A DNA stretch of 64,000 nucleotides from an uncultured Planctomycetia bacterium (GTDB lineage Bacteria > Omnitrophota > Gorgyraeia > 2-02-FULL-51-18): positions 42,131 to 106,130 of the forward strand of contig CAYSKO010000001.1 of the NCBI GenBank assembly GCA_964431835.1. The letters run 5' to 3'. Position numbers and translations under genes: made by a program. Below the pieces are notes generated by a model. That model was given only the letters and a program-made list of their open reading frames with translations, had not been told where the DNA came from and did no database searches. This document shows positions 2 to 58,933 of the stretch, piece after piece. The first letter of the stretch is position 1. Each line of letters starts with the position of its first letter.

Positions 2-3000
2 TTGCGCCGTTTCTTGGCGAGCGTCGCCGGCGAGGGAACGCGGCGCGTGTCTCCCGAGACGATTCAGGAAGCGGCGAAGCGTGCCCCTAATTTCAACGCC
101 TTCGTGACCGGCCTCCTCAGGGACTACGTGATGCGCCCGCTGTTCGACGACACCCTCGCGCGTACCTGGGGGGACAACGTACCCCAGGGAGCCGCCGCCC
201 GCATCGAGGAAGCGGTATTCTCGGACGTTTATTCGGCCATCCAGCACGATCCGTCCCTGCTCGACCAGTACGTCGCCACCGGCGATATCAAATTCAATCC
301 CGATCCGCTGATTCGCACGAACGAACCGCTCACGGCGCGTGAAAGCGTCGTCAGCAACGTGCTGCTCCTGCCGCTTTCGCAGACGGGCAAGCATTCGCTC
401 GGCATGTTCGGCGCGCAGTGGCCGCTCAACCTCTACGTGACGCGCGAAGTGCTCCAGGGCGTCGCCGACGGCAAAACGCCCGCGCAAATCCTGGCCCGGG
501 TGGATCTTCTCTTCAATCTTTTCACGCCGGTCCTCCTGCGCGAGCTTAAAAAACACAAATTGATCACCGATCCGCCGGACGGAACGCCGCGAAGCGACAA
601 GACGCTGAGCGACGTATACGTCGACACCGACATGTACGATCACCTCGAGATGGCGTTCCGCGATCCGACGATGACGATCGAGCGCGCGCTCGATCTGACG
701 ACCGCCGAGCTCGAGCAAAAGGCGGCGCTGGCCGCCTCCGGAAACGAAGCTGTTCTCGACGAGCTCGCCAAGCTCTATAAGGACAAGAAACGCCTTCTGC
801 TCAAGGCGAACTATCCGCGCGCGTCCGCGGCCTCCGAGAAAAAACGCGGCGTCATCAATTTCTACCTCTTTAAAGTGATCGCCCCCAAATTTGATCTGAA
901 AGGCTACTGGTCGATGAGCCCAGCCCGGCGAACCGTTTTTTACGTCAGCGCCCTTGTCCTCCTGGTGTGCGGCATTTTTCTCGTGCCGGTTTCGCTCGCG
1001 GGCGGTCTCATGCTGATCGCCGCGATTCCTTACGTGCTTCCGCCGCTCCTCATGGGGAACTCCAAGCTTTCCGACCGGATCGCCATGGTGTCGGTCGGCC
1101 TCCTGACCGACTTCTACGTGTTCGGCGTCCTCGTGAACCAGCTTTTCTGGAAATGGGAACTCGTGCAGGAGAACTGGGCGACCCTCGGTTTCTGGGTGAC
1201 CTCCTTCCTCATCGCGCTCATGATGATCCCCACGAAGGCTTCCGTGACGTACCTCGTTCGCGGAGTCCGTGCCTTCTTGATCAACAACGAGACGGCCTGG
1301 TCCGAAACGGCACGGTCGCTCACGGGTTGGCGGTCGGTCTTCAGGCTCCGGGGCCATTGGCCGCAGACGTTCGCCGACTGGTACGCCGAATTCCGCACGG
1401 CGGAAGACGAGACGGGGCCGCTCGTGTCGAATGGGGAAATGATCGGGGAATACCTGACATCGGTGGTCAACGGCCTCTACAACGACAACCGGCTGAGCGC
1501 GGCTGAGCGGGATTCCTGGCTCGCCGGCATCGAAGGGCGGCAGCCGGCCACGGGCGTCGCATTCATGCGCCCGCAGTCCGAAGAAACGTTCGCACTTCTC
1601 CACCGCCAATTCCTGGCGATCAGCCGCAAGAAACCGCGGGCCGACCGTTTCGAAAGCATGCAGGCGAGCTCCTCGCACGTCATGAACGCGGGCGAGCTCG
1701 TGACGCACACCGCGGAGTCCGCGGGATTCCTCGGTACGTTCCATTCGGACCCCGACGACTTCGGCCGCATGAGTTCGTTCGTCGGCTACTGTGCGCGCAC
1801 CCACCCGGCGGAATGGGGGAACGCTCTCGACAAAGTCGCCGCTTGGGCGCCCGCGCCGTACGTACAGGCGCTGCGCCGGCTCGACGAATGGACGGATCCC
1901 GTCGCGGTCGTGTTCGAAGGCCGTGCGCCGGACGGCACGACGCTCCCCGAGATTACGCAGGAAGAACGCCGCCGGATCATGCGCGCCATTCTTGATTTCA
2001 TGGACGTCATTCGCCCGAATGACCGCAAGGGCATCCGGACGTTCGCGAAGGAATTCATCCAGTTCCACCTGAAGGCCGCCGCCGACTCCGGGGACATGGA
2101 ATATCACGGCGCCGTGCGACGGATCGCGCAGACAACCGAATCGCTGCCGGAAGCCCATCGCCGCTTGTCCGCGGCCTCTCTTGAAAGCCTGAGCTCCGAA
2201 GAGCGCGCCTTCGTCGAGCGCTTCCCCGCGTATCAGGCGGCCGTGGCCGTCAAACTCCGCGAGATCTTCCTCAACGTCATGATGGCCGTCCACTTCAACG
2301 CCGATTACGGCGGGGTGAACATCCGTGCAACTCCGGTCGCGGGTCTCTTGGGCGGTCTCGCGGGCCTGGATCTCGCAGGTAGGCCGGATCTCGTCGCGCG
2401 GCGGGACGCGCTCGTCGCCGGTCTACGCGAGTTCGATCCGGCGCAAGCGGCGGATTCCACGAAATTCGCCAGCATGGACACGTTCTCACAAGCGTTCGTG
2501 GTGTGGTACGAGCAAAATCAGGGAGAGTGGCTGACTTTCATCGGTGCGGTTCTCCGCGAGGAGAACGCGATCGACCGTATCGCGGCTACGCTCACGAACG
2601 CCGCCGATCCGGCCGCGATGAGAGCCGCCCTGAACGCCCTGCCGTTCGGCGCCATGCCGGATTTCGGGTGGAAGCGCGAGGATCTCCTCGCGGAGCTCAC
2701 GGACATGGAGCCCGGCAATCTCGCGGCCTGGAAGGCAAAACATGCGGAAGATTTCAAGAAGCTCGCCCGGGGCGCGCAGGTGGGCCGGGTGAAAGGTATA
2801 ATCGGCGGTTTCGAAAACGTCCTTCAGAACGCCACCATCGTGGTGGAATGCGCGAACGTCGGCGCGATCTACGCGTTCCATAACCGCGCCGACACAAATT
2901 TGCCCGGCAACGGCACGAAGAACGGTGCTATCTCCGGCAACCTGCACCTTTATTACTCCCGCTCTTCCAATCTCGACGCGCACGTGCACTCTCTTCAACC

Positions 3001-5539
3001 CGTATTCCGATTCGAATCCATGGCGCTGCAGAGCCGCGTGCGCAATCCGCAGAACCTCGTCGTGAACCCCTCGATGCGCATCTGGGCGTCCGGCGACGCG
3101 TTTCCGGCGACCCGCGATTACGCGGTCGGTCAACACAACTGGACGCAGATCGTTCAGATGGCGGAGAGCGGCCGGCTGACTTTCTACGGCAAGGGTCACA
3201 TCGTGAAGTACATGGTCACCTTCGTCACGCCGCCCGGCGAGGATTCGAGCGATTACCTTGCCCGCCAGCGCACGCAGCCCATCGTCCGGAGCGTTCATGT
3301 TGATTACGACGACGACCTGTGGGGCCGCCCGATGCAGAATCCTCCGCTGAAGGGAACCGAAAAACGTTATTCCTCGAACGTCAGCGCATTCAAGGACGAC
3401 CCGGGCCAGTTCGCCGTCTTCGAGGTGGCAGAACTGGAGCCGGCGACGAAGGACACGCACGACAACTTGTGGTCACTCTATTTTTACGCGGTTTTCGCGA
3501 TTGCGCTCCTGATTATCGTCCCTACGCTACTGCCTTTCTCGGCATTCGCTTCGTTACGGCCGTTCCTGTTCTACGTCACCGCAAGCTTCGTCCTCATGTT
3601 CGCTATCACAAAGAGCAACATTCTCTACAATTGGCGCCTGGAAGGGAGCCTGTGGGTCGGCCTGTGGCGCTGGTTGGCGGATACTTTCCGCGCTACGCCG
3701 TTCTACGCGAGTTTCCAGCCGTTCTACCTGCAGGGCGTGTACGAGACCTCGAACCAGACGTTCGGCTTCGTGCGAACCGTCAAGGAAGCGCTTTTCACTG
3801 GTTATAGTGACCGCACGCGTTTCGATAAGCTCATGGTCTACCACGGGGTTCCCCTGAACTCGACGCTGGGCTTTCTCGGTGTTCTGGCGTTCATGGTTTC
3901 GATGCTCATGATGACGGCGTTTGGTCTGATTCTGTTCCCGTACCTCAACATGGCCATCGGTATCACGAGCGGCGATTACACGCACGGTGTGTTTAAGGAC
4001 CGGCAGGGGAACTTGAAAGGATTTAGCTTCACCCGCCAGTACAAAATGTTCTTCGTCGTCATGGCTTGGACCGCAGGCGTTTACGCCCGGCTTTTCGTCG
4101 AAGGCGCCCGCCGGTTGTTCGGCCGCAGGCCCGGCGCTCCGGGAGCGCCCGCTGCTCCGCCCGCCGCACCGCGTCCCGTTCCGCCCGCGCCTTCCGCCCC
4201 GACCCGCTCCTCCGGCGCCCGCTTGGCGGGGGAGAAGCCCGCAGAATCCCCGTATCTGCTTCCCGTAACGGTGGGTGTGGTGGCCTCGACCGACGCCGAA
4301 TTCCAGGCGAGGACGGAAGCGCTGCGTACGCTGGTCGGATCCGAGCTCGAGCCCGCGTTCTCGTTCGAGCGCGTGGCGGCCGGTGAAGAAGTGCAGTTCG
4401 GCATCGGTGAAGGAACGCCTTTCCGCGTCCTCGTGGATTCCGGCGCTTTCGAAGACTCCGGCGCGGTGTCGGCCCGCGAAACCCTTTTCGGCAATCTGGA
4501 AACCGTCGCCCGGCAGCGCCAGGACCGCATGGAAGCGGAGCTGGCCCGCCAGGAGGTCTTCATGGAGTTCCTTGCGCGTGTGGCGCCGGACGGCTTCTCG
4601 TTGGGCGAAGAAGGAGCCATTGAACGGGCTCTCGACAGGCTCGACGCCGCCGCCCTCGGCGCCGCGCTCCGCTCGATCGCGCTCCCGGATCCGGCCCGTA
4701 TCCGGACGATGGGGACGTCGGCTGGCTTCACGCTCGTGTCCGACGGCCGTTTCCTGCCGCCCGCGCGGCTCGACGAAAACCTTTTGACGCAGCTTTTGGA
4801 GCGCGCCGCCGCTTCCCCCGCCGACACGGACAAGGTCGACGCTCTTCGCGGCGCCCTCTCGCTCGCCATCGGTACGTTGGGTGAGTCGGGCGAGGGTGCT
4901 TTCGCGAGGAACGCCGCCGATGCGATGCGCGTCGTTCTGACCGCGTACGCGAAGATCGTGTCGCAGCAGGGCACGATCCAGCCAACCGACAATTTCGAAG
5001 GCGAAAAGACGATCGCCGTCACGGAAGACATGTTCCGCGCGAACGCGGCGGATTACGTACGCGACGCCCAATACCTGATTTCCAAGAACGACCAGGTGCG
5101 CCTGGCGCTCGTCATTCCGGTCACGCCCGCTTTGCGTAGCCTTTCGAAAGAGGAGCGGGAACGCGCGTACCGGCTCGAAAACCCGGATGCGGGGCTCTTC
5201 CGTCTTGTCTTCGTGGAAGGCCAGCCCGGCTTGGAAAATGTCCGCGCCGCCATCGAAGGACCGTTCATCCTCGCGGGACGCGAGGGAACTCCGGCCAGCG
5301 GCATCGAACGCCGGGACCAGGCCATGCTGATGCAAGTGGATGCACTGGCCAAGACCCACCGCACGACGCTCGTCGTGGCGGCCAAGCTCCTTTACGCCGG
5401 CAAGGACGTGTCCCTGCCCGGCCTTCGCAAGCTCGAAGACGGCGTGTTCCGCTACCTGCCTGCGGTGTCGCCGATCCAGCTCCTGCGCCTCCTGCAGGAA
5501 GCCAACGCCAGCCTCCGCTCGATCTCGTCCTCGGCCTAA
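2..5539 (+). CDS. Giant multi-pass membrane protein, 5'-partial (>1845 aa), function unknown. It has several hydrophobic helix clusters and a Pro/Ala-rich linker (GRRPGAPGAPAAPPAAPRPVPPAPSAP).
   Basis: The ORF is uninterrupted from the window edge. Codon usage matches the neighbouring genes. TM-like hydrophobic stretches are present and the low-complexity PA linker lies at about nt 4130-4215. I recognise no catalytic motif. Confidence 0.6.
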   Translation: MRRFLASVAGEGTRRVSPETIQEAAKRAPNFNAFVTGLLRDYVMRPLFDDTLARTWGDNVPQGAAARIEEAVFSDVYSAIQHDPSLLDQYVATGDIKFNPDPLIRTNEPLTARESVVSNVLLLPLSQTGKHSLGMFGAQWPLNLYVTREVLQGVADGKTPAQILARVDLLFNLFTPVLLRELKKHKLITDPPDGTPRSDKTLSDVYVDTDMYDHLEMAFRDPTMTIERALDLTTAELEQKAALAASGNEAVLDELAKLYKDKKRLLLKANYPRASAASEKKRGVINFYLFKVIAPKFDLKGYWSMSPARRTVFYVSALVLLVCGIFLVPVSLAGGLMLIAAIPYVLPPLLMGNSKLSDRIAMVSVGLLTDFYVFGVLVNQLFWKWELVQENWATLGFWVTSFLIALMMIPTKASVTYLVRGVRAFLINNETAWSETARSLTGWRSVFRLRGHWPQTFADWYAEFRTAEDETGPLVSNGEMIGEYLTSVVNGLYNDNRLSAAERDSWLAGIEGRQPATGVAFMRPQSEETFALLHRQFLAISRKKPRADRFESMQASSSHVMNAGELVTHTAESAGFLGTFHSDPDDFGRMSSFVGYCARTHPAEWGNALDKVAAWAPAPYVQALRRLDEWTDPVAVVFEGRAPDGTTLPEITQEERRRIMRAILDFMDVIRPNDRKGIRTFAKEFIQFHLKAAADSGDMEYHGAVRRIAQTTESLPEAHRRLSAASLESLSSEERAFVERFPAYQAAVAVKLREIFLNVMMAVHFNADYGGVNIRATPVAGLLGGLAGLDLAGRPDLVARRDALVAGLREFDPAQAADSTKFASMDTFSQAFVVWYEQNQGEWLTFIGAVLREENAIDRIAATLTNAADPAAMRAALNALPFGAMPDFGWKREDLLAELTDMEPGNLAAWKAKHAEDFKKLARGAQVGRVKGIIGGFENVLQNATIVVECANVGAIYAFHNRADTNLPGNGTKNGAISGNLHLYYSRSSNLDAHVHSLQPVFRFESMALQSRVRNPQNLVVNPSMRIWASGDAFPATRDYAVGQHNWTQIVQMAESGRLTFYGKGHIVKYMVTFVTPPGEDSSDYLARQRTQPIVRSVHVDYDDDLWGRPMQNPPLKGTEKRYSSNVSAFKDDPGQFAVFEVAELEPATKDTHDNLWSLYFYAVFAIALLIIVPTLLPFSAFASLRPFLFYVTASFVLMFAITKSNILYNWRLEGSLWVGLWRWLADTFRATPFYASFQPFYLQGVYETSNQTFGFVRTVKEALFTGYSDRTRFDKLMVYHGVPLNSTLGFLGVLAFMVSMLMMTAFGLILFPYLNMAIGITSGDYTHGVFKDRQGNLKGFSFTRQYKMFFVVMAWTAGVYARLFVEGARRLFGRRPGAPGAPAAPPAAPRPVPPAPSAPTRSSGARLAGEKPAESPYLLPVTVGVVASTDAEFQARTEALRTLVGSELEPAFSFERVAAGEEVQFGIGEGTPFRVLVDSGAFEDSGAVSARETLFGNLETVARQRQDRMEAELARQEVFMEFLARVAPDGFSLGEEGAIERALDRLDAAALGAALRSIALPDPARIRTMGTSAGFTLVSDGRFLPPARLDENLLTQLLERAAASPADTDKVDALRGALSLAIGTLGESGEGAFARNAADAMRVVLTAYAKIVSQQGTIQPTDNFEGEKTIAVTEDMFRANAADYVRDAQYLISKNDQVRLALVIPVTPALRSLSKEERERAYRLENPDAGLFRLVFVEGQPGLENVRAAIEGPFILAGREGTPASGIERRDQAMLMQVDALAKTHRTTLVVAAKLLYAGKDVSLPGLRKLEDGVFRYLPAVSPIQLLRLLQEANASLRSISSSA

Positions 5540-5651: not shown

Positions 5652-5728
<77 letters not shown>

Positions 5729-5739
5729 ATGTAACGCAA

Positions 5740-5779
5740 GAAACCGCAGTGGTTAACGTCACTGCGGTTTCTTCTTTAG
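5740..5779 (+). terminator. Rho-independent terminator-like hairpin after the tRNA
   Basis: The stem is aaccgcagtg / cactgcggtt around the loop gttaacgt. It is followed by the T-rich run tcttcttt. Confidence 0.55.
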
Positions 5780-5940
5780 GTGTATGAAAATCGGTTCTGT
5801 CTAACAGCTGTCTAACAACTCAGAATTTGCTATACTCCTATTAGGGTATGGAAGCGAGTTTGATTCGGCCCGCCTCCACCATATTGAAAGTAAACCAGGG
5901 GATTGCATAGAAGAATGTTATTTGTACAGGGATTGCGAAC

Positions 5941-7992
5941 TTGTCCCCGCGTAATTCCTGCCTTCCGAAAGACGAGGACGAAGTGAAGATTTCTGTCGAA
6001 GTAAAACCTGATTTCCTCCAACGCTTGATTGGCGTCAAAAATCCTGTAATCAATCTTTCCGAGCTCATCTGGAACGGCTTCGACGCAGATGCGTCTGAGG
6101 TCAAGGCTTCCCTCGACCTGAGCGAGCTTGGTGCGATTGATGAGATCCGCGTGTCTGACAACGGTCACGGAATGCCGCATGCGGAGGCGCTGATCGCATT
6201 CAAGGATCTTGGCGGATCCTTAAAGCAGTCCAAAATCAAATCGTCCAGCGGTCGCATGCTACATGGTAAAGCCGGAAAGGGGCGCTTTCGTGCCCTGGGC
6301 CTCGGGCAAAAGGTCGAGTGGATCACGCACTACAAGAAGGACGGTGATGTCTACGAATATCGGATCATCGGGACCGCAGCAGATCCCGGCACATTTGAGA
6401 TCGAAGACGAGAAACCTTCAACGCGCAGATCGACGGGCACGGAAGTGCGGATCACCGGCGTGCGGGATTTCCGAAAACTAACGCTCGAGGGCGGCGGCTT
6501 GTACGAGATCGCCACAAACTTCGCTCTTTATCTCCGCCAATATCCGAAAGTCTCTCTCTACTATGAGGGGCAAAAGGTTAACCCTTCTAATGTGCAGGAA
6601 CACGAGGAAGACTACCAGATCACTGGCGTCCAACTTCCCGGCGGCCGTCAAGTAAATGCAACATTGACTGTCATTGAGTGGACGCCTGCGGTTGAGCGTG
6701 CTCTTTACCTCTGCGATCAGAGCGGCTTCTCGCTCGAAAAAACTGCGCTGGGCATCCACGCTTCGGGTTTCAACTATACCGGCTATCTCAAGTCTGACCT
6801 GATCCGCGAGCTGGACAACGATGGCACATTGCAGCTTGATGAACTGAATGATAAGCTCGTGCCACTTTTAGACGCAACGAAGACGAAACTGAAGGAACAC
6901 TTCCGAAAGCGCTCGGCTTTGAAGGCCTCCGATGTTGTCAATACATGGAAGAACAAAAATATCTATCCGTTCAAAGACGCGCCGCAGAACCAGGTCGAGG
7001 TCGTCGAACGGCAGGTCTTTGACGTGGTCGCGATTAACCTGCACCACTACCTTCCTGATTTTGACAAGTCGAGTGATAAGAACAAACGCATCCAGCTGGA
7101 GCTCCTCCGGCAGACGCTGGAGACCAGTCCCGAGATCGTACAGAAGATCATGCGTGATGTGCTCGAGCTGCCGAAGGAGAAACAGCAGGAGTTTGCTGAG
7201 CTCCTCGAAAAGACGACACTCTCGGCTGTCATCAACGCCTCGAAGGTTGTTGCCAACCGCCTGAACTTCATCAAGGGTCTAGAGGCTGTGGTGTACGAGC
7301 ACGACATTAGCAAGAAAGTGAAGGAACGCGAGCATCTTCATCAGATCCTCACCCGGGAGACCTGGCTTTTTGGCGAAAAGTTCAATCTATCAGTGAGCGA
7401 CGGCGCGTTGACGACCGTGCTTCGCAAACACTACTTGCTGGCAGGGCGTACTACCGACGACATCGACCCAATCTACAGGGAGGACGGTACAGCCGGGCGT
7501 GTGGACCTCATGTTCTCCAAGCGGATTCCACATCATGACAACCGGCTCGAGCACCTGGTCGTGGAGCTCAAACGACCAGGAACGGTTTTGGATAGCTCGA
7601 TGGCCAATCAGATTGAGAGCTATGCGCTCAAAGTTTCCACCGACGAGAGATTTCAGAGCGTAGGCGCAAAATGGACCTTCTGGCTCATATCGAACGATAT
7701 GACTCCGGAGCTGCGGGCCAAGATTCGCCAGGCAAACCGGGAGGAAGGTATTCTGCTACAAACAGATGGTATCGTTGTTTGGGTTAAAACGTGGGCGCAG
7801 ATAATTGAGGAATGCAGCGGCAGGCTGCGCTTCTTCCAAGAAAAGCTAGAGTTCGGTGCGGATCAGAGCTCTGGGATCGAATACCTTAAGAAAATGCACG
7901 CGAAGTACCTTCCGAAAGATCTACAAAAAGAACCCCAAAGCCAGAACGGTACGGTTGTAGTTGCCAAGAGCGCCAACTTATCATCGCGGTGA
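5941..7992 (+). CDS. GHKL-family (MORC / HATPase_c_3-like) ATPase with a C-terminal putative PD-(D/E)xK nuclease-like region
   Basis: The N-terminal Bergerat-fold motifs are the N-box 'ELIWNGFDADASEV' and the G1-box 'IRVSDNGHGMP'. The C-terminal region has 'GRVDLMFSK...HLVVELKRPG', which is a D...E-x-K arrangement. The ORF opens at TTG 5941, but the start is more likely GTG 5983 because it follows a GAGGA RBS. The gene lies in an AT-richer block immediately 3' of the tRNA. Confidence 0.6.
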   Translation: MSPRNSCLPKDEDEVKISVEVKPDFLQRLIGVKNPVINLSELIWNGFDADASEVKASLDLSELGAIDEIRVSDNGHGMPHAEALIAFKDLGGSLKQSKIKSSSGRMLHGKAGKGRFRALGLGQKVEWITHYKKDGDVYEYRIIGTAADPGTFEIEDEKPSTRRSTGTEVRITGVRDFRKLTLEGGGLYEIATNFALYLRQYPKVSLYYEGQKVNPSNVQEHEEDYQITGVQLPGGRQVNATLTVIEWTPAVERALYLCDQSGFSLEKTALGIHASGFNYTGYLKSDLIRELDNDGTLQLDELNDKLVPLLDATKTKLKEHFRKRSALKASDVVNTWKNKNIYPFKDAPQNQVEVVERQVFDVVAINLHHYLPDFDKSSDKNKRIQLELLRQTLETSPEIVQKIMRDVLELPKEKQQEFAELLEKTTLSAVINASKVVANRLNFIKGLEAVVYEHDISKKVKEREHLHQILTRETWLFGEKFNLSVSDGALTTVLRKHYLLAGRTTDDIDPIYREDGTAGRVDLMFSKRIPHHDNRLEHLVVELKRPGTVLDSSMANQIESYALKVSTDERFQSVGAKWTFWLISNDMTPELRAKIRQANREEGILLQTDGIVVWVKTWAQIIEECSGRLRFFQEKLEFGADQSSGIEYLKKMHAKYLPKDLQKEPQSQNGTVVVAKSANLSSR

Positions 7993-8026
7993 TTGAACCT
8001 ACCCAAAAAACATTTAGGATTTACAG

Positions 8027-8869
8027 GTGACAACTCAGTCTAGTGGGCCTATTCAAGAAAAATTACACGACATAGCGCGTAGTATGATTGAGATACAATT
8101 CGCGGAGAACGAAAAGCGCCTTCAGCATGATATCAACGATATTAAATGTAAGTTGGCCGCGCGAGGTGTTTTGCATTCTGGTATGACCGCAAAGCTAATT
8201 CACGATCTTTGCGACAGAGAAATTGAGACTCGCGCTTTCATCGTTTGGAGGTCTTACCAGAAAGTTATTGCAGCCGGAATTGATACATTAGCAGGCTTAG
8301 CCGATGAGTTACGATCAAAGGTCAGTGGGTATGTTTCTCAGGAAGCACCCAAATTGATCCAGGAAGCTCAAAGGATAAATAAACTTATCGGAATGGGCCC
8401 AGATCAACAGGTTGAGCAAGCGAAAGATCACGCTCTGAAGAAAGTCTTTGCCGAGATCGATTTATTTGTGCACACTGTTGAAAACAGGTCCAAGGAAGCC
8501 GCCAAGACCGGCGCGTCGGGCAGTGTCATTCAACAGATTATAAATTCAACTATTGGGGCGAATCAGGTCGGCGCGAACTCTATCGCAAGCGTGAATATGA
8601 CCATAGGCTCTCAAACTCGCACGGACATTCTTGAAGCGCTAAAATCGGTCAAGGCCGCGGCAGATTCAGTTGAATCGTTACCGGGTTGTCAAAAAGAGGA
8701 GTTTGCTGAGCTGGTTATTGAAGCTGAAACCGAGGTTAAAAAAGAGTCTCCTAATCGCCTCAAACTCGGCAGTGCTCTTACTGCGATCGCGACTACCATA
8801 CAGACTGTGGGAAGTATGAGAGCCGCATATGAAGTGCTGAAGCGCGCTCTTATGTTTTTTACGGCATAA
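8027..8869 (+). CDS. Hypothetical alpha-helical protein, the partner gene of the GHKL ATPase
   Basis: It lies 34 nt downstream on the same strand. It has a GTG start with an AGGA RBS. It has no recognisable motifs and is predicted to be largely helical. It shares the low-GC composition of the upstream gene. Confidence 0.5.
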   Translation: MTTQSSGPIQEKLHDIARSMIEIQFAENEKRLQHDINDIKCKLAARGVLHSGMTAKLIHDLCDREIETRAFIVWRSYQKVIAAGIDTLAGLADELRSKVSGYVSQEAPKLIQEAQRINKLIGMGPDQQVEQAKDHALKKVFAEIDLFVHTVENRSKEAAKTGASGSVIQQIINSTIGANQVGANSIASVNMTIGSQTRTDILEALKSVKAAADSVESLPGCQKEEFAELVIEAETEVKKESPNRLKLGSALTAIATTIQTVGSMRAAYEVLKRALMFFTA

Positions 8870-9021: not shown

Positions 9022-9127
9022 AGTTACGGGACCAAGTCCCAAAGTACATAGTTGAACGAAATTAGCCTCCTGTGTCGTCTTATAAGATAAGGAGGCTTTC
9101 TTTATGCCCAGAAAACCACGAATCTCA
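9022..9127 (+). repeat. 106-bp direct repeat, copy 1. It is a duplicated left end of the RAYT/IS200-like element and includes the first 25 nt of the transposase ORF.
   Basis: It is identical to 11373-11478. It contains GTAG followed by the palindrome GGGACcaaGTCCC, the RBS-sequestering hairpin, and ATGCCCAGAAAACCACGAATCTCA, which here runs into a 20-codon stub. Confidence 0.85.
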
Positions 9128-9249
9128 GGCGTTTTTCGGGCCTACCCCCCGTTAGTTTCTTTTAATCCCGCTTTAATCGTTCTCTAACCCCGAATAACTT
9201 ACAATCAAGTACGTGAAGTCTGTCCACTTACAACGGCGGGGGGGGGTCC

Positions 9250-10764
9250 TTGATTCGACGCATCTTACGCTCGACGAAAAATAAAAACGCCTCGGGACGC
9301 GAGAGGCTGGAAAAAATTCTCACCGGCATCAAAGGATTTGATCATATCACCGGGGGAGGGCTGCCGAAGAACCGGTCCACGCTCATTTGCGGAGGTCCGG
9401 GTTCCGGCAAGACTCTCTGGGGTGTCGATTTTCTCGTGAAGGGCGCGACTCTTTACCGCGAACCGGGCGTGTTCGTCTCTTTTGAAGAGACCGCGGACGA
9501 GCTGTATAAAGACGCGGCTTCCCTGAATATAGACTTGAAAGCGCTCGTCACGCGGAAAAAAATTCGGATCGAGCATATCCTTTTGGAACGCAAGGACGTC
9601 CAGGAAAGCGACTTCAGCCTCGAGGGGACACTTATCGGCCTCGAGCACGCGATCGATTCCGTCGGCGCCAAGCGCGTGGTCCTGGATTCGTTCGAATCGC
9701 TGTTCGCGGGCATCGCGGACGCGGGCATCCTCCGCTTGGAAATAAAGAGGCTTTTCCGCTGGCTCAAGGAGAAGGGAGTCACTTCGCTAGTGACCGGCGA
9801 ATCAGCGCACGCGTCCATGAGCAGCCGCGGGCTCGAGGAGTATATTTCCGACTGCGTCATTTTTCTCGACAACCGGGTGCACGATCAGATCGCCGTCCGC
9901 AGGGCCCGTATCACCAAATACCGCGGCTCGAGCCACGGCACCAACGAATATCCGTTCGTCATCGATGACGAAGGCCTTTCGTTCATTCCCATCACCGCCA
10001 CCGCGCTCGACCGTCCCGGCACGTCCAAAAAGATCTCGACGGGCATCCCGTCGCTCGACCGTCTGTTCGGCGGCCCCGGGGGGGCAAGGGGCTATACCCG
10101 AGGCAGCTCGGTGCTCGCTTCGGGTACCGCGGGAACCGGAAAGACGAGTCTCGCGGCCGCTTTCGCAGCGGGTAGGTGCCGTCAGCGCGAGCGGTGCCTG
10201 TTCCTGTCCTACGAAGAATCCCCGGGGCAGCTCATCCAGAATATGAGCTCCATCGGTTTCGACCTCAAGCCCTTCATCAAGAAGGGGCTCCTCAAGATCG
10301 TGTCCACACGGCCTTCTCTTTTCGGCCTCGAGAGGCATCTGCTTGATCTCTACAAGATCATCGAGGAGTTCAAGCCGAAGGCCGTCATCATCGACCCTTT
10401 GACGAGCCTCGTCGCGGTGGGCAGCCCGCGCGAGATCGAATCCATGGTCACGCGCATGATCGACCTGTTGAAATCTAGAGGCATCACGGCGTTCTTCACG
10501 AGTCTCGTTTCTTCGGCCGCTGAAAATTACACCAGCGGCGAGATCGGCGTCTCGTCCCTGATCGACACCTGGATCGTCGTCCGGGAGATCGAGCTGGACG
10601 GCGGCAAGAAGCGCGTGCGCGGCCTTTACATCGTCAAATCCCGGGGCATGAGCCATTCCAGCGACATCCACCGGCTGATCATGAGCGACGAGGGGCTCGT
10701 GCTCAAGGCCATGGATGAAGGGCCCCCGGCTCAGCAGCAAAGGTCTAGCCATGCAAACCCCTAA
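9250..10764 (+). CDS. KaiC-like double RecA-superfamily ATPase
   Basis: There are two Walker A motifs, GGPGSGKT and GTAGTGKT, each preceded by a 'GIxxLDxxxGGG'-type loop. At about 504 aa it is typical of KaiC/RadA-like proteins. The apparent start is TTG and is uncertain. Confidence 0.75.
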   Translation: MIRRILRSTKNKNASGRERLEKILTGIKGFDHITGGGLPKNRSTLICGGPGSGKTLWGVDFLVKGATLYREPGVFVSFEETADELYKDAASLNIDLKALVTRKKIRIEHILLERKDVQESDFSLEGTLIGLEHAIDSVGAKRVVLDSFESLFAGIADAGILRLEIKRLFRWLKEKGVTSLVTGESAHASMSSRGLEEYISDCVIFLDNRVHDQIAVRRARITKYRGSSHGTNEYPFVIDDEGLSFIPITATALDRPGTSKKISTGIPSLDRLFGGPGGARGYTRGSSVLASGTAGTGKTSLAAAFAAGRCRQRERCLFLSYEESPGQLIQNMSSIGFDLKPFIKKGLLKIVSTRPSLFGLERHLLDLYKIIEEFKPKAVIIDPLTSLVAVGSPREIESMVTRMIDLLKSRGITAFFTSLVSSAAENYTSGEIGVSSLIDTWIVVREIELDGGKKRVRGLYIVKSRGMSHSSDIHRLIMSDEGLVLKAMDEGPPAQQQRSSHANP

Positions 10765-11359
10765 ACCCCGTTTCATCGTCGGCATCGGAGGATCGGCGGG
10801 AGGCCTAGACGCTTATATGAAGTTCCTCGACGCCCTTCCGGAGGACACCGGAATGGCTTTCGTCATCATTTCCCACATCCTTCCCACCGAGTCCCACAGC
10901 CTCTTGGCCGAAATCCTGGCGAAACACACGAAAATGCCGGTCCGCGTGACCGCCGCGGAGATGCCCGTCCGGCCGGACCATGTCTACGTGATCGCTCCCA
11001 ACGTGGACCTTCGAATCGAAGACTATACCTTCAAACCCACCGCCCCGCGCACGATGAACAAGCAGGTGGACATCTTCCTGACCTCTTTGGCGAGCGCGAT
11101 GGGCGAGCACGCGATCGGCATCATTTTTTCGGGATATGACGGAGACGGCTCACAGGGCTGCATGGAAATCAAGTTGAGAGGCGGCACGACGTTCGCCCAG
11201 GATAGCTCGGCCATCGTGAACGGCATGCCCGTGAGCGCGCAGAGGTCCGGCTACGTCGACCACGTGCTTCCGCCCGGAGAAATGGGCGCCGCGCTCGAGA
11301 AATGGGCAGACGCCTTTGACACCCACCCCAGCGGGTTCGGGCATTTACTCACCACGTGA
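10751..11359 (+). CDS. Stand-alone CheB-type methylesterase domain protein, probably the truncated N-terminus of a CheB-CheR-PAS-kinase gene
   Basis: The CheB_methylest pattern is 'IVGIGGSAGGLDA...IISHIL...GYDGDGSQG'. Its sequence is homologous to the N-terminus of the 46422 gene through '...HPSGF', and it then ends at the boundary of the RAYT repeat. Confidence 0.65.
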   Translation: MQTPKPRFIVGIGGSAGGLDAYMKFLDALPEDTGMAFVIISHILPTESHSLLAEILAKHTKMPVRVTAAEMPVRPDHVYVIAPNVDLRIEDYTFKPTAPRTMNKQVDIFLTSLASAMGEHAIGIIFSGYDGDGSQGCMEIKLRGGTTFAQDSSAIVNGMPVSAQRSGYVDHVLPPGEMGAALEKWADAFDTHPSGFGHLLTT

Positions 11360-11372
11360 GGTTACGGGACCA

Positions 11373-11478
11373 AGTTACGGGACCAAGTCCCAAAGTACAT
11401 AGTTGAACGAAATTAGCCTCCTGTGTCGTCTTATAAGATAAGGAGGCTTTCTTTATGCCCAGAAAACCACGAATCTCA
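11373..11478 (+). repeat. 106-bp direct repeat, copy 2. It is the native left end of the RAYT/IS200-like element.
   Basis: It is identical to 9022-9127. It is preceded by a partial tandem copy 'gttacgggaccaa' at 11361-11373. Confidence 0.85.
11415..11448 (+). promoter_or_regulatory. Stem-loop that sequesters the transposase RBS (AGCCTCCT ... AGGAGGCT)
   Basis: 8-bp inverted repeat arms enclose an 18-nt loop. The 3' arm is the AGGAGG Shine-Dalgarno, 7 nt before the ATG at 11455. This is analogous to the translational-repression hairpin of IS200. Confidence 0.5.
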
Positions 11479-12063
11479 AGCGCTTCCGGGCTTTATCACT
11501 TCATCGCTCGGGGAATGAATAAGAAGACTCTTTTTCATAAACATTCGGATTATAAGGCGTTTGAGGATCTAATGGCCGAGTATCTAACAAAGTTGGATAT
11601 GCGGCTGTACCACTATTGCCTCATGCCCAATCATACCCACTTGCTCGTTTCGGCGGTCGATGTCGGCCTGCTCAGCAGGTTCGCGCATTTCGTTCATCGC
11701 CGGTACACGTATCATTATTGCAGGGCCTATGGATGGTCGGAGCAGCTGTTCAATAGGAGGTTCCGGAGTATTCCTATTGAGAGTGACGGTTATTTACTGG
11801 AATGCGGGCGTTACATAGAGAGGAATCCTCTCAAGTCGAATAGGGTCCAGGATGTGGGAGATTATCCTTATTCAAGTTATGGTTTTTACGTTGTTGGAGC
11901 AGCATCGGCTTTTATAACGCGTAATCCCATGTATGATACCTTTGGAAGGACAGAAGAGGAGAGGCGGCAAGCCTATAAGGCATATCTTTTGACGCCAAGG
12001 CCTTATGAGTCGTTATTAGACGAAACGATTTCTAACTATGTACCTGTGGACTTGGTCCGGTAA
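11455..12063 (+). CDS. IS200/IS605-family Y1 (HUH) transposase, REP-associated tyrosine transposase (RAYT)-like
   Basis: The HUH motif is 'YHYCLMPNHTHLLV' and the catalytic Tyr region is 'RYIERNPLK'. The size (202 aa) fits a RAYT. A GTAG-palindrome lies upstream. Confidence 0.75.
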   Translation: MPRKPRISSASGLYHFIARGMNKKTLFHKHSDYKAFEDLMAEYLTKLDMRLYHYCLMPNHTHLLVSAVDVGLLSRFAHFVHRRYTYHYCRAYGWSEQLFNRRFRSIPIESDGYLLECGRYIERNPLKSNRVQDVGDYPYSSYGFYVVGAASAFITRNPMYDTFGRTEEERRQAYKAYLLTPRPYESLLDETISNYVPVDLVR

Positions 12064-36398: not shown

Positions 36399-36449
36399 GG
36401 GCCGCTCATAACCCGAAGGGCGTGGGTTCAAATCCAACCTCCGCTGCCA
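36399..36449 (+). repeat. Partial, diverged copy of the 3' half of the tRNA-Met (anticodon loop to CCA); a putative att-site remnant
   Basis: The sequence is 'gctcataacccgaagggcgtgggttcaaatccaacctccgctgcca'. It matches 5684-5728 at about 44 of 50 positions. It is in the same orientation as the intact tRNA. No 5' half, D-arm or intact anticodon stem is present upstream. Confidence 0.6.
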
Positions 36450-36460
36450 ATAAACGCAAA

Positions 36461-36486
36461 AGCCACCAGGTTTACGCCTGGTGGCT
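36461..36486 (+). terminator. Terminator-like hairpin
   Basis: The stem is agccaccagg / cctggtggct with loop tttacg. It lies directly after the tRNA fragment and the kinase gene. Confidence 0.45.
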
Positions 36487-37689: not shown

Positions 37690-40600
37690 TTACGTGGTAA
37701 CTTGGCCCAAAACGACGCGGATCTGATGGCTCATTTGGTCGTCCGCCAGGACGATACCTTCCAGGCGGCGCAGTGGCCGGCCGTCCATTTCCATGGACCG
37801 CACGCCTCGTGAAACGCGGTCCGGATTCTCGGTCTTGATCTGGTAGCGCGTCGATCCGTGCAGGAAAGACAGCTCAAACCCTTCCCACGATGCCGGAATG
37901 CACGGATCAAAGAAGAGGGTGTTCCCCCTCAGACGAAATCCAAGAATCGATTCGATACCCGCCCGGTACATCCAAGACGCTGAACCGGTGTACCACGTCC
38001 ATCCGCCCCGACCCGTATGCGTGGATCCGGCGTAGACGTCTCCCGCCATCACGTAGGGCTCGACCTTATAGCGCTCGATATCGATCCGTGTGCTCGCGTG
38101 ATTGATCGGATTGAGTAAAGAGAAGAGCTCTCCCGCCGAATTGCCGTCTCCCGATGCCGCGAAGGCAAGAAGGGCCCAGACGCCCGCGTGCGTGTACTGC
38201 CCGCCGTTTTCGCGGATGCCGGGCAGGTAGCCTTGGATGTAGCCGGGGCTAGGTTTCATTTTATCGAAGGGCGGCGTTAGGAGTAGGACCAAGCCATCCT
38301 TTTTGCGAACCAGATGTTCACGGAGGGAGGCCATGGACCGTGCGGCGCGTGCGGGATCCGCGGCACCCGACAAGACTCCCCAAGATTGGGCGATTGAATC
38401 GATCCGGCATTCCTCGTTGACGGCCGAGCCCAGAGGCGTGCCGTCGTCAAAAAAAGCGCGTCGATACCAGCCGCCGTCCCAGCCGTGGTGCTCGACCGCA
38501 GTCTTCAGATCTCCGGCGTGTAAGCGCCATTTTTCGGCGCGGGCATGTTCGTTCGTCGACTCGGCCACTTTTGAAAATTCGCGGAGGGTCGCGTGGAGAA
38601 ACCAAGCCAGCCAGACGCTTTCGCCTTTTCCTTCATGGCCCACACGGTTCATGCCGTCATTCCAGTCGCCGGTGCCCATGAGGGGCAGGCCATGGCTGCC
38701 TACGGCCAGGCTCCGGTCGAGTGCGCGGGCGCAGTGCTCAAAGAGCGTTGCGCATTCCGCCGAAACGAGGGGCTGAAAATAAGCGTCCTCTCTTCCTTCG
38801 GGAATCGTCTGGCCCTCGAGAAAGGCGACGGATTCTTTCAAGATGCCGCGATCGCCGGTGACCTCGATATATTGCATCACGACGTAAGCCAGCCAAACGA
38901 GATCGTCGGAGATCCGCGTACGCACGCCGCGGCCCGATGGCGGATGCCACCAATGCTGGACGTCGCCCTCGGGAAACTGCCGCGCCGCGGCGCGGAGAAT
39001 GTGTTCGCGGGCGATGTCCGGCCTCGACACCAGGAGCGCCATCACGTCTTGAAGCTGGTCGCGGAAGCCGTAAGCGCCTCCCGCCTGATAAAAACCGCAG
39101 CGCGCCCACACCCGGCAGGCCAGCGTCTGATAAAGCAGCCAGCGGTTCAGTAAGAGATCCATCGAGCGGTCCGGCGTCCGAACTTGCACCTTTTCCAAAA
39201 CACCGGCCCACTGTTCTTTCACTTCGGAAAGGACGGCGTCGATGTCCGCCGTGCGGTAGCGCCGGATGAGTTCACCTGTCGCGGCGCGGTCCGCTCCCTG
39301 GCCGAGAAGGAATACGATTTCGATCCGCGCGCCCGGCCGCAGATCGATCGTTTTTTGAAACGCCGCGCACGGATCGAGGCCCGGGCCGGATTTTCCGGAC
39401 AACCGCGCACCTTTGGCGATCGCGGCAGGCAGGTCGTAAGTGCCGTTGCGCCCCAGAAATTCGGAGCGGTCGGCGGTCCAGGCGGTCTGCTGTCCGCCCA
39501 AGTCGGCGAAGGCCACCCCTTGAGCGAACTCGGTGTTCCAGGGATTGCGTGCCAAGATCGCCCCAGTTTGGGCGTCTACCTCCGTAATGACGAACGGGGC
39601 GTTGGAGGCACGCGAGCTTCCCAGCACCCATTCGACGTAAGCGGTGACTGATAGCTTCCTCCGGCGGTCGGACTGGTTCGTGACGCTCAAGCGGGAAATC
39701 TTGACCGGGTCCGCCACGGGGACGAATTGCAAGAGCTCGAGCGCGATGCCGTGGGAAACGTGCTCGAAACGGCTGTATCCCTGGCCGTGACGCGAAACGT
39801 AGGGCCACGCTTCTTCGCGAATAGGCAGAACGGTCGGGGTCCAGAATTCGCCCGTCTCTTCATCGCGTACGTAAAAAATCTCTCCGGACGGGTCTGAGGC
39901 GGGGTCGTTGGACCAAGGCGTGAGCTGGTTTTCGCGGCTGTTGCCGGCCCAGGTATAACCGGAACCCGATTCTGAAACCTGAAAACCGAACCCGGGATTG
40001 GCGATTACGTTGATCCAGGGGGCGGGTGTCCACTGGCCTGTCCCCAAATGGGTGATGTACTCGCTGCCGTCGGACGAGAAACCTCCCAGCCCGTTAAAAA
40101 ACTGAAGCCGGGATAACTCGGCAGGCGTTTTGAGCGGTGGCGCGGCCTTCGCCTTACGGCGCAGCGGCGGGCGAAAATCAACAGGCTCTTCCAGGCGCGC
40201 GAGCTGCTGCATGAGCGAGCCGTTGCGGCTGTTCAGAATGACCCGTGCGGCCGTGCGCAAGAGAGTTTGCTCTTCAGCGGAAAGTATTTCGGCCCGTAGG
40301 ACGAAGATGCCGCCTTGCAGGTCCGCCGCATCGTGTTTGTGAATGGCTTGCGTGGACCGGACGAGATTTTCAAGGGACGCCTGCAGTTCCTGCGAATACG
40401 AATGCGCTTTTTCGTTCAGGATGACCAGATCCACCGCGAGATTTTTCATCCGCCAGTATTCGCGGGCGCGCAAAGCGTCCCGTACGATACCGGCATCCTC
40501 CGCTTCGTTGATGCGTACGAGCAGGATCGGGAGGTCGCCGGAAATTCCGTAGGGCCATAGTCCGGCGGGCCCGAGCGTATTTCGCGCGAGAATGTCCTGA

Positions 40601-43600
40601 GGGGAGCGGAGGCCGTCGTGGGAATAGATGATCCGGCCGGCCAGATCCTGGAAGAGGCGGGTCTCGCCCGGCTCGATCCCCAAGTAATGCTGCTGAATGC
40701 GTGCATGGGTCCACGCGAGAGCGACCGCGCGTTCGAACATGGCCGGATCGTGGTATTTGTCCGCCAGCCCCATGGTTTCCTCGCGCGAAGAAGTGATCAC
40801 GGTCGTGAAGGTCACACGGACGGTTTCGCCAGGCGCGACGCGGACGCGGCAGCGCAGGCTCACGATCGGATCGATGACGGCGCCGGCATTATCGGACAAA
40901 GGTTTGCCGTCGATCACGCACATGGGCGTGTGGATTCGCCGCCCCCGGCCCAGAAAACGGGTGCGGTTGGATTCATACTGAACCGCCCCTACAGAGTCTC
41001 CTTCGACGACTATGACATGGCCGGCCCATGGAGAGGATTCGTGCGGGGAACGCGGCCGCCGCGTGCAGAGCAAGCCGGTTACTTCCGGCACAAATTCGGT
41101 GTGAACGAAAAGGTTGGAAAATGCGGGGTGGGCGAGGTCCGCCATGTGGGGAGCGAGGACGATCTCGGCGTAGGACGTCACGTCGATCAGCCGGGGAGAG
41201 TCGCCGGTATTTTTCAAAGAGACGCGGCGAATCTCGGCGTCGTCTTCGGGAGACACGACCACTTCGAGCGTCGTCTCGATGCTCCCGTCACGGCGGGTGA
41301 TTTCCGCGCGGTCTTCGGAAAAGTTCGCTTTGTATTTTTCCGGCTCGGTGGTCGTGGGTTGATAGCCTGCGGACCAGACTTGGTCGGATTCGACGTCCCG
41401 CAGAAAAATATAGGTGCCGGTAGCGTCGCGCGTGGCGTCCTCTCTCCAGCGCGTGACGGCGATATCCCGCCAGCGGGAATACCCGGAGCCGGCGGCCGTG
41501 ATCATGACGCTGTAGCGACCGTTCGAAAGTAAATGCGTTCTCGGCACCCCTTCGTGGGGAGAATCAAACCGCCGCAGGACCAAAGGAGCCGCATCGCGGC
41601 CCTCGGCGGGGGATTCCTTGGGCCGCACCCGCACGACGGTGGCCGACCGGGGCACGCGTTCTTGAAGGAGGAGATTGCTCGCCTGCACACGGGGCTCGGC
41701 GTTAAAACGGACACGAAAAATACCGTCATACAGCGTGTTGGCCAGGGAGATCAGCGACATTCCTTGGTGGTGAGCCATATACGCCCTCACGACGGCCACG
41801 CTTTGGTTCTCCGGGAGCCGCGCCGCCGTAAAATCCAGTGATTCGTAAAAACCGAACCCTCCCTGACCGCCTATTTTTTCAAGATTCCTGAAATTTTTTG
41901 CGGCTTCCTTTGGCGCGATCATCGCCGCGAGCGCGGTCGCATAAGGCGCGACGACCAGATCTTCGGATAGTCCCTGCTTGAGTCCCAAGCCCGGAACGCC
42001 GAAATTGGAGTACTGATAGGTGTGATGGAGATTTTGGACGTTGTACGCGGATTCAGAAACTCCCCACGGAACGCCGCGCTCCGCGCCGTAGGCGATTTGC
42101 AGACGGACGATGCGGCGGCAGGTCTGGTCCAGAAGACTGTTGGCGGGAGACCGCATGACCAGGAGCGGCATGAGGTACTCAAACATCGATCCGGACCAGG
42201 AGACGAGCATGAGCGAGTGGTTCACCGAAATGATCGAGCGCGCCAGGCGGAACCAGTGCATGGCCGGCACGTCGCCTTTGGCGATTGCGACGAAGCTGGC
42301 GAGCCTCGCCTCGGAAGTCAGGAGATCGTAAAAACTCGCATCCAGCTTACGCTCGGCCACCTGGTAGCCGATCGAAAACATTTTTTTGGAGGGATCGTAC
42401 AAGAATCCGAATTCCATCTCCCGGACCAGCCGGTCACAAGATTTGGCCACGGTCCGGAGGCGGTTTGTGAGGGCCTTGGAATGCAGGTCCTTCTGATGGC
42501 TTCGGACCTGACGGAGCAGGAGTTCCGACCAGCTCAAGAGCTCGTCCTTTAATTTACCACTTTTTCCGCCGGACAGCACTTCGGCGATATCAATGAGCGT
42601 GACGGTGCGCGTCTCGATTTCGGCCAGTCGATCGGGCCACTCGGACGGCGAAGGAAGGGTATCCGTGAGACTGGTTTTCAGGGCGACAAGCGCTTCTTCG
42701 AGTTGAGCGCCCGTCACGGTCTCCGTGCGCCTACCGGCGCCGGCTCGGGAGGCGGCTTCCCGGATCAGGAAGAATGTGTCCTTGAACCCGTCGAAGATAT
42801 TGGTCCTTAGAAGCGGCGGATTCTCCATCTGCCGGCAGGCTTGAGCCAGGGTCCACAAGTGGCCCGCGAGATTTCCGCTGTCCACCGTGGATACGTAACG
42901 GGGTTCCAGCGGCCGCAGATCGTTGGTGCTATACCAGTTGAAGAGATGCCCGTGATGCTTCGCCATTTTTTTGATCGTGGCAAGCGTCGCCTCGAGTTTT
43001 TCGACGGTATCGGAAATCCCGATCCATCCGAAGTCGCGCGCGCTGACGACTGAAAGAAGGTACAGCCCGATGTTGGTGGGCGACGTGCGCTCGGCGACCA
43101 CGGGATCGGGAATTTCCTGAAAGTTGTCGGGCGGAAGGGATTGATGCGACTCGTCGACGAACGTTTCAAAAAACCGCCATGTTTTTCGTGCGATGACGCG
43201 AAGACGCCGGCGGTCTTGGGCGCTCAGCCTCTCGTCCTTGGCTTCGGAGAGGGGCAAGCTGATGGCCCACGCGATACGCGGAGAAAAGGCCCATAACGCC
43301 GCGAAGGGGAGGACCATCCAAAGCCGTTCTCCGGTCGCGCACGCGAACGGGAGCAGCGCTGCCGCTAGGGCAATCAAGGGAGCGCCGATCATCCGTTCAT
43401 AAAAAATAGCCGGCACGTAACCGCAGCGGCTTTTGGATTGGGCCGCAGTGGCCCATTCGAGTTTGTTGCGGCGGCTGATCGTGAGGCGGTAGAGGGTCCT
43501 CAGAATAGCATCCGTCATCATGACCGTCTGATGGGCGAGGAAGATCGCGGTGAAAAGAATGTAAGCGGCGGCCAAACGAAAATCTGTCCATACCGTGCCC

Positions 43601-57890: not shown

Positions 57891-58933
57891 GTACTCCCGA
57901 CGACATCAACCCACCCGGTAAGGGGCAGTTTCTCGTCTATCCCACCGAAGACGGGCAGACGAAGATTGAAGTCCGGTTGGAAAACGAAACCGTTTGGCTG
58001 ACACAGCAACACATGTCCGAGCTTTTTCAGGTGGGCGTTTCGACTATTAACTACCATCTCAAAGAGATCTTCGATAGCGGCGAATTGACACCGGAGGCAA
58101 CTATTCGAAATTATCGAATAGTTCGCAAGGAAGGGACCCGCGAAGTAGCTCGCTCACTCGATTTCTACAACCTTGACGCCATTATCTCCGTCGGCTACCG
58201 CGTCAAAAGCACCGTCGCCACGCGCTTTCGCATCTGGGCCACGCAAAAACTCCGTGAGTTTATCGTCAAAGGCTTTGTCCTCGATGACGAACGCTTGAAA
58301 AACCCCGATCAACCTTTCGATTACTTTGATGAGCTGCTCCGGCGGATTCAGGACATCCGCACGTCCGAGCGGCGCTTTTACCAAAAGATCACCGATATCT
58401 ATGCCACCAGCATCGATTATGACCCTACTCAGCCGGTTAGCATCGAGTTTTTCCAGACCGTGCAAAATAAAATGCACTGGGCCATTACCGGACAAACGGC
58501 CGCGGAAATCATTCACTCCCGCGCCAATAGCGCCAAGTCCAACATGGGCCTGACCAACTGGCGCGGCGCGAAGGTGCGCAAAGAGGACGTCTCCATCGCC
58601 AAAAACTATCTCAATGAGGCTGAATTGGCCGCCCTCAATAACCTCGCCGAGCAATACCTCCTCTTTGCCGAAGGCCAGGCCCTGCGCCGCGTGCCGATGC
58701 ACATGCGCGACTGGATCACGAAGCTCAACGCCTTTCTGACGGTCAACGACCGCAATATCCTGACCCATGCGGGGAAGATTTCCCATCAACTCGCCAAGGA
58801 GCTGTCCGAGACGGAATATAAAAAATTCAATCTCAAGCGCATCCAGCAGAGCGACCGATCCGGTGGAGATTTTGAGAAGGCGATTAAACAATTGCCAAGT
58901 CCGCCCAAGCGGAAGAAAAACAAGAAGAAGTGA
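57887..58933 (+). CDS. RhuM-family protein (virulence protein RhuM / DUF-type). This is a common insert between hsdM and hsdS.
   Basis: Its ATG overlaps the hsdM stop (ATGA). Homologs of this roughly 350-aa family are found embedded in type I R-M loci. Confidence 0.55.

Follow-up and report, generated by a model that had tools for sequence, protein, structure and literature searches.

A putative stand-alone GHKL ATPase-nuclease of the paraMORC3/Shedu kind beside a tRNA-Met gene of an uncultured Planctomycetia bacterium

A stretch of 64,000 nucleotides of contig CAYSKO010000001.1 (assembly GCA_964431835.1, positions 42,131 to 106,130) from an uncultured Planctomycetia bacterium, hereafter the window, contains two neighboring open reading frames (ORFs), denoted ORF-A and ORF-B, downstream of a tRNA-Met gene (Table 1). 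In a preliminary description, the two were interpreted as an undescribed two-gene defense cassette, in which a GHKL/MORC-like ATPase fused to a putative nuclease is accompanied by a helical partner. The present analysis bears out both frames (5941-7992 and 8027-8869, plus strand), the domains assigned to the first product and the adjacency to the tRNA, and a role in conflict or defense is still the best reading of ORF-A. The two-gene organization and the novelty of the system are not borne out: ORF-A is probably a self-contained defense protein of a known kind, and ORF-B an unrelated neighbor.

The tRNA-Met gene is followed by its own terminator, so that ORF-A needs a promoter of its own, in the AT-rich stretch 5780-5970, where none was identified. 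The longest frame of ORF-A opens with a TTG codon at 5941 and encodes 683 aa. The true start is likely the GTG codon at 5983, which gives a protein of 669 aa, because GAGGA precedes it at 5974-5978, an identical database protein (P0001) is 669 aa long, and the family has the consensus start 'MKxIxVxV'. Two residue numberings are therefore in use, one for the 669-aa product of GTG 5983 and one for the 683-aa product of TTG 5941. ORF-B starts with the GTG codon at 8027, with AGGA 7 nt upstream, and is separated from the stop codon of ORF-A by 34 nt. As previously recognized, the two genes form an AT-richer block, with a GC content of 0.53 in ORF-A and 0.46 in ORF-B compared to 0.63 in the gene upstream; at third codon positions (GC3), the respective values are 0.65, 0.45 and 0.80.

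The only Pfam domain detected in ORF-A is HATPase_c_3 (aa 39-137, E = 9.6e-14), in agreement with the GHKL/MORC-like ATPase originally recognized. In an alignment of 35 full-length homologs (42-69% identity), all ATP-binding residues are invariant, namely E27/N31/D34 of motif I, D59-x-G-x-G63 of motif II and G95/G98/G100 of motif III in the 669-aa numbering (E41/N45/D48, D73-x-G75-x-G77 and G109/G112/G114 in the 683-aa numbering). The 'D...ELK' pattern that had been pointed out in the C-terminal third of the protein is real as well: the same alignment includes the invariant nuclease residues E448, D508, E528-L-K530-R-P, Q543 and Y547 (E462, D522, E542-L-K544-R-P, Q557 and Y561 in the 683-aa numbering), of which E462, D522, E542, K544 and Q557 are also invariant in a separate C-terminal alignment of 27 sequences. 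The AlphaFold2 model of ORF-A (mean predicted local distance difference test score, pLDDT, 80.7) starts with the GHKL domain, which is followed by a middle domain rich in beta structure, by a long helical region with lower confidence around aa 400-430 and by an alpha/beta C-terminal domain. The middle domain is of the Hsp90/MORC/MutL type. The C-terminal domain is modeled as a PD-(D/E)xK fold, with SduA of Shedu as the apparent best fold matches, which agrees with the nuclease originally proposed and not with a non-nuclease fold.

Table 1. Features of the ORF-A locus, the surrounding island and the type I restriction-modification operon in the 64,000-nt window
Feature	Position	Strand	Remarks
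tRNA-Met (CAT)	5652-5728	+	ARAGORN; insertion site, proximal boundary of the low-GC island
Hairpin and T-run terminator of tRNA-Met	5741-5777	+	Read from sequence
ORF-A, 669 aa	5983-7992	+	Stand-alone; GHKL ATPase, middle domain, helical linker, PD-(D/E)xK nuclease
GHKL (Bergerat-fold) ATPase domain of ORF-A	5983-6465	+	Motifs I, II and III
Middle (S5/transducer-like) domain of ORF-A	6493-6840	+	Beta-rich, after the ATPase
All-helical linker/arm of ORF-A	6853-7311	+	aa ~305-457 (683-aa numbering); secondary structure and pLDDT of the model
PD-(D/E)xK nuclease domain of ORF-A	7318-7860	+	
ORF-B, 280 aa	8027-8869	+	All-helical; independent neighbor of ORF-A
Direct repeat of the 3' part of tRNA-Met, attR-like	36404-36461	+	Distal island end; pattern search, alignment, GC profile
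hsdM	56259-57890		Type I restriction-modification operon
348-aa gene	57887-58933		Between hsdM and hsdS
hsdS	58930-60177		Type I restriction-modification operon
SIR2-like gene	60174-61208		Between hsdS and hsdR
HerA-like ATPase gene	61221-62930		Between hsdS and hsdR
hsdR	from ~62946		Type I restriction-modification operon; runs off the window

The single-gene GHKL-nuclease architecture of ORF-A has been described before. The paraMORC3 family was defined in 2008 by the combination of GHKL and S5 domains with an extra conserved C-terminal restriction endonuclease (RE)-fold domain that carries an E-D-ExK signature (Iyer, Abhiman and Aravind; PMC2292703). These genes are sporadic and laterally mobile, occur in restriction-modification (R-M) neighborhoods or stand-alone, mainly in Proteobacteria and Bacteroidetes, and the stand-alone proteins were speculated to have functions outside R-M (PMC2292703). 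In 2023, GHKL-type proteins were filed under Shedu type 1D (Gu et al.; 10.1101/2023.08.10.552793). A single gene of the same architecture, that of VcSduA of Vibrio cholerae, is sufficient to protect both this species and Escherichia coli; the ATPase mutation E27A and the nuclease mutation K557A each abolish defense, and protection was observed at all multiplicities of infection tested (Adams et al. 2025; PMC12137116).

The likeness between ORF-A and VcSduA extends from the overall organization to individual residues. Each is the product of a single gene of about 670 aa with the same order of GHKL ATPase, clamp-like middle domain, helical region and C-terminal PD-(D/E)xK nuclease; the N-terminal ATPase of ORF-A has the GHKL motifs I-IV. 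In both proteins, the catalytic Glu is residue 27 (in ORF-A, counted from the 5983 start), the nuclease Lys K530 of ORF-A (669-aa numbering) is equivalent to K557 of VcSduA, and the nuclease motif V-x-E-[IL]-K-R-P is followed by Q..[GS]Y. Both genes are located in horizontally acquired islands. VcSduA in V. cholerae adjoins the GmrSD-like GrwAB system, and four ORF-A homologs adjoin GmrSD too; in these four loci (L047, L049, L063 and L075, from Xanthomonadales and Nitrospira), a GmrSD-type (DUF262/DUF1524) gene is located upstream in divergent orientation. The two proteins differ in motif I, which is MutL/MORC-like in ORF-A (ELIWNxxDADA) and FEAVxNSIxS in VcSduA, in the match to HATPase_c_3, which is strong in ORF-A but barely present in VcSduA (E = 0.048), and in the spacing between D and ExK, 20 residues in ORF-A compared to 28 in VcSduA.

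To represent the VcSduA family, a 400-aa stub of the VcSduA sequence from the bioRxiv supplement was used as the seed to retrieve full-length members, which were aligned (alignment A4). In the hhalign comparison of the ORF-A family (alignment A1) with A4, 519 collinear columns were aligned with an E-value of 8.2e-5, a probability of 60.8% and 20% identity. The aligned part begins at the DNGxG motif, ends at the C-terminal helix and places 'VVELKRP' of ORF-A opposite 'VIEIKRP'. ORF-A has the architecture of VcSduA and probably also its working principle; its family is a distant one and possibly represents a parallel fusion.

When compared by description, ORF-A resembles paraMORC3 in both architecture (GHKL, S5 and a C-terminal RE-fold domain with E-D-ExK) and neighborhoods (sporadic, R-M-linked or stand-alone), which places it inside or beside that family. 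The taxonomic emphasis differs: paraMORC3 was reported mainly from Proteobacteria and Bacteroidetes, whereas the listed matches of the ORF-A family are often from Acidobacteriota, Planctomycetota, Verrucomicrobiota, Myxococcota and Xanthomonadales. In the comparison with canonical Shedu SduA (8ti8/8ti9 of Bacillus cereus and 8ps4 of E. coli), ORF-A has no sequence-level match to DUF4263 or to the solved chains. The N-terminal domain of B. cereus SduA is of the sPC4/Whirly type, in place of the GHKL domain of ORF-A, and SduA forms tetramers and octamers, in contrast to the dimer expected for a GHKL protein such as ORF-A.

Among other GHKL proteins, MutL, MORC and Hsp90 differ from ORF-A in their additional domains: ORF-A lacks the endonuclease/dimerization domain of MutL, the CW domain and coiled coil of MORC and the C-domain of Hsp90, and contains an REase-fold nuclease instead; its scores also fall far short of the cut-offs of these families. 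Scanning ORF-A against PADLOC, NCBIfam and Pfam yielded the HATPase_c_3 domain and weak N-terminal matches to REase or MutL models, and nothing further. Assignment to MutL was rejected, given that TIGR00585 matches only aa 34-89, with a score of 25 bits where 180 are required, and the MutL C-terminal domain is absent; the MutL-type matches in the Protein Data Bank (PDB) likewise cover the N-terminal ATP-binding motifs only. Type II restriction enzymes of the BbrUII/HgiDII family (NF050001; REase_II in PADLOC) resemble ORF-A in having an N-terminal HATPase_c_3-type domain. Membership in that family was rejected as well, because the match is limited to about 95 N-terminal residues and its score of 46 bits is below the cut-off of 550.

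In the protein collection, ORF-A has more than 500 relatives of full length, and at least 551 loci of the family were found among the GTDB species genomes, across many phyla. Homologs are also encoded in 53 plasmid records, from Streptomyces, rhizobia, bacteria of the Roseobacter group and Salmonella Senftenberg, in which they are annotated as 'ATP-binding protein'. ORF-A matches phrog_6203 end to end (E = 6.5e-65), and two Pasteurella phages encode homologs. To characterize the neighborhoods, 80 of the at least 551 loci were fetched, and the neighboring genes were clustered over 78 of these. Type I R-M genes are found near the ORF-A homologs (HsdR in 9, HsdM in 8 and HsdS in 6 of the 78 loci), as are SNF2 helicases (5 loci), GmrSD (4 loci), MmeI-type enzymes, AbiEii-type ATPases, HNH proteins and integrases. 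Several homologs share an operon with hsd genes, either overlapping these or separated by gaps of less than 12 nt. Of the two closest relatives of ORF-A, the one with 72% identity is followed by SNF2 and MmeI-type genes, and the one with 60% identity by MmeI/Eco57I-type methylase genes. No cluster of neighbors is represented in more than 9 of the 78 loci, the small clusters seen around relatives of either ORF-A or ORF-B consist of R-M subunits or come from near-duplicate contigs, and the flanking genes vary in size and strand. The ORF-A family is a single-gene one with no obligatory partner, and its patchy distribution, over islands, plasmids and prophages, is that expected of a mobile, stand-alone defense gene.

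Taken together, the domains and motifs, the stand-alone gene, the defense-type neighbors, the mobility, the profile alignment with VcSduA and the published function of VcSduA argue that ORF-A is a self-contained, single-gene nucleic-acid defense protein of the paraMORC3 or Shedu type I-D kind, similar to VcSduA, with ORF-B as an unrelated neighbor. We consider this reading probable, with several observations that weigh against it. Homology with VcSduA is weak (20% identity and 61% probability over the full length), and for the nuclease domain alone, the hhalign E-value is 0.013 and the probability 3.4%. PF14082 (DUF4263) does not match full-length ORF-A at E-values up to 0.1 or its C-terminal 208 aa at E-values up to 10, and neither the PADLOC Shedu models nor NCBIfam recognize the protein. 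Many homologs are located among ordinary metabolic or regulatory genes, the remainder of the island holding ORF-A is, judged by eye, not defense-related, and no experiments on the ORF-A family were found in the literature searched.

PF14082 is also absent from the precomputed Pfam annotation of 120 ORF-A homologs, and a profile of the ORF-A nuclease domain has no Shedu match among PDB sequences in HMMER searches. The validated VcSduA family fails the same tests: hmmscan of its members P0125, P0160 and P0222 detects no DUF4263 and, at best, HATPase_c_3 with E = 0.048, and HMMER searches of the PDB with the A4 profile retrieve neither GHKL nor Shedu chains. Such tests therefore have low power, and the negative DUF4263 result does not separate ORF-A from VcSduA.

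The mechanism that we propose for ORF-A derives from other GHKL enzymes, namely MutL, Hsp90, MORC and type II topoisomerases, and from VcSduA. By analogy, ORF-A would act as a homodimer, in which ATP binding would drive dimerization of the N-terminal domains and thus close the gate, while the middle domains would enclose the DNA like a clamp. ATP turnover would then license or position the C-terminal nucleases, which would cut invading phage or plasmid DNA. The expected outcome is direct restriction, as opposed to abortive infection through host suicide.

A bolder variant, which we regard as tentative, is that the ORF-A family is a separate, unnamed lineage of putative GHKL-nuclease immune proteins, which would have arisen separately from the VcSduA lineage, by fusion of a MutL/MORC-type ATPase with a Shedu-like nuclease. 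Such a lineage could differ from VcSduA in its trigger and in the targets for which it is specific.

The original proposal for paraMORC proteins was that they are accessory to R-M. Under this scenario, ORF-A would be the motor-nuclease of an R-M system from another locus, such as the type I operon at 56-64 kb of the same window, perhaps looping DNA between the recognition and cleavage sites. Homologs that lie within type I hsd operons or immediately behind them (L029, L038, L045, L054 and L062) are consistent with such a role and agree with the published neighborhood analysis (PMC2292703). Nevertheless, about 85-90% of the ORF-A loci have no adjacent R-M genes, and the R-M system of the window is 48 kb away and outside the island. 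Moreover, unrelated defense genes are well known to insert into hsd operons, as exemplified by the SIR2-HerA pair in the hsd operon of this window. Because ORF-A additionally has its own nuclease and VcSduA is active by itself after transfer to E. coli, we consider an accessory role of ORF-A in R-M unlikely.

Somewhat less likely again is that ORF-A has no immune function and instead takes part in DNA repair or recombination, or serves as a nuclease in the maintenance of mobile elements, that is, a MutL-like housekeeping or an addiction protein. The weak N-terminal similarity to MutL, the homologs found among ordinary genes and the published speculation on roles of stand-alone paraMORC3 proteins outside R-M (PMC2292703) would fit this possibility. 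In contrast, the MutL scores are far below the cut-off and the MutL C-terminal domain is missing, as described above; the family is scattered over the phyla and occurs on plasmids, in phages and in islands; defense genes are enriched among the neighbors; and the closest characterized analog of ORF-A is an anti-phage protein.

ORF-B had been reported to contain no recognizable motif, which is nearly right, the exception being weak matches to the PADLOC model PDC-M14B. In ORF-B itself, the match covers the C-terminal 100 aa (E = 8.7e-5); among 46 members of its family, 30 match PDC-M14B (best E = 1.8e-8, still weak) and essentially nothing else. A word-indexed search retrieved 3 relatives of ORF-B, and an exhaustive HMMER search 902 cluster representatives, so that the co-occurrence analysis was repeated from the ORF-B side. 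The family (including P0244-P0392) consists almost entirely of proteins of 270-280 aa that share the conserved motifs 'EIDLF', 'SPVGAVQTG', 'KPN' and a C-terminal 'GIxLP'. ORF-B is a distant relative of the candidate component PDC-M14B and may be a defense-candidate gene in its own right; a literature search on PDC-M14 found nothing. Assignment of the ORF-A and ORF-B pair to the PADLOC candidate PDC-M14 was rejected, because both components are required and ORF-A has no match to PDC-M14A among the PADLOC models at E-values up to 10.

The proposed cassette did not pass the co-occurrence analysis in either direction. By single-sequence tblastn, a relative of ORF-B was found in none of the 80 ORF-A loci, and a homolog of ORF-A or another GHKL gene in none of the 55 metagenome loci with ORF-B relatives, where neighbor clustering also revealed no conserved neighbor of any kind. 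The homolog of ORF-B with 82% identity is located behind an unrelated gene, the product of which has a C-terminus unlike that of ORF-A; the homolog with 58% identity (P0123, ENA ERZ27296333) has a same-strand gene 35 nt upstream, the DNA of which could not be read. Recurrence of the identical pair is confined to three short contigs of one sequencing study, which represent the same strain and not independent conservation. ORF-A and ORF-B are probably co-transcribed in this genome, because they share the strand, are separated by 34 nt and have no terminator between them, but this is no evidence of joint function, and their difference in GC3 suggests separate origins. Given this difference, the lack of co-occurrence and the other neighbors of close relatives, the adjacency is local only, and the pair is not conserved as a two-gene system. 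An obligate system of an ATPase-nuclease effector with a helical sensor or regulator is therefore very unlikely, despite the close spacing, the recurring contigs, the same-strand gene upstream of P0123 and the distant similarity of ORF-B to PDC-M14B, as the lack of a PDC-M14A match for ORF-A and the SNF2 and MmeI-type genes that take the place of ORF-B behind the 72% and 60% relatives also indicate. A still bolder version of the separate-lineage variant has ORF-B, as a PDC-M14B-like protein, modulating ORF-A in this lineage.

The pair is located at the tRNA-proximal edge of an apparent genomic island of about 30.7 kb (about 5729-36461) inserted at the tRNA gene, the limits of which are set by direct repeats of tRNA-Met and by the GC profile. 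The repeat, of about 60 nt, extends from the anticodon arm to the CCA and about 12 nt downstream, and recurs in direct orientation 30.7 kb from the tRNA. A pattern search found two matches, with none expected by chance, and each copy is followed by a hairpin terminator. The GC content is 0.44-0.57 between the copies and 0.61-0.68 outside. The cargo, annotated by eye, includes universal stress proteins, CBS-domain proteins, PAS kinases, a LuxR-type regulator, a desaturase, lactate dehydrogenase and permease, and a P-type ATPase, and resembles a stress or dormancy regulon; an integrase was not seen in the island by eye. The preliminary description took the context for a classic defense island, which does not fit an inserted island whose other genes, by eye, appear to serve stress responses and metabolism. 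The island lies between two very large genes, at 2-5539 (plus strand, 1845 aa) and 37690-46314 (minus strand, 2874 aa). The 1845-aa product, encoded upstream of tRNA-Met, has no Pfam match at E-values up to 1e-5.

That the pair lies beside a transposase gene, as had been noted, is only partly right. A 113-nt stub of its 5' end is located at 9022-9134, but the IS200/Y1-transposase-like gene itself (11455-12063) is 2.6 kb away. The stub is one copy of a 113-nt direct repeat, 98% identical to the second copy at 11373-11485, that covers the region upstream of the transposase-like gene together with its initial 13 codons ('MPRKPRIS...'). The two copies bracket a KaiC-like gene (9250-10764) and a CheB-like gene (10715-11359), which have a host-like GC3 of 0.77, unlike ORF-A, ORF-B and the transposase gene.

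The true defense cluster of the window is located at 56.3-64 kb, where a type I R-M operon contains an embedded SIR2-HerA pair (Table 1). The SIR2-like and HerA-like products match solved SIR2-HerA defense complexes with E-values of 1e-13 and 2e-90, respectively. The 348-aa product encoded in the same operon presumably resembles RhuM-family proteins.

ORF-A and its stand-alone GHKL-nuclease homologs form a large family that is not flagged by the PADLOC, NCBIfam and Pfam models scanned and is labeled only 'ATP-binding protein'; the validated VcSduA defense family is missed by profile-HMM annotation as well. If the ORF-A family were included in defense catalogs, the annotation of Acidobacteriota, Planctomycetota, Verrucomicrobiota, Xanthomonadales, Streptomyces plasmids and others would benefit. 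The family also bears on the question of whether ATP-gated control of the nuclease is general to GHKL-Shedu proteins.

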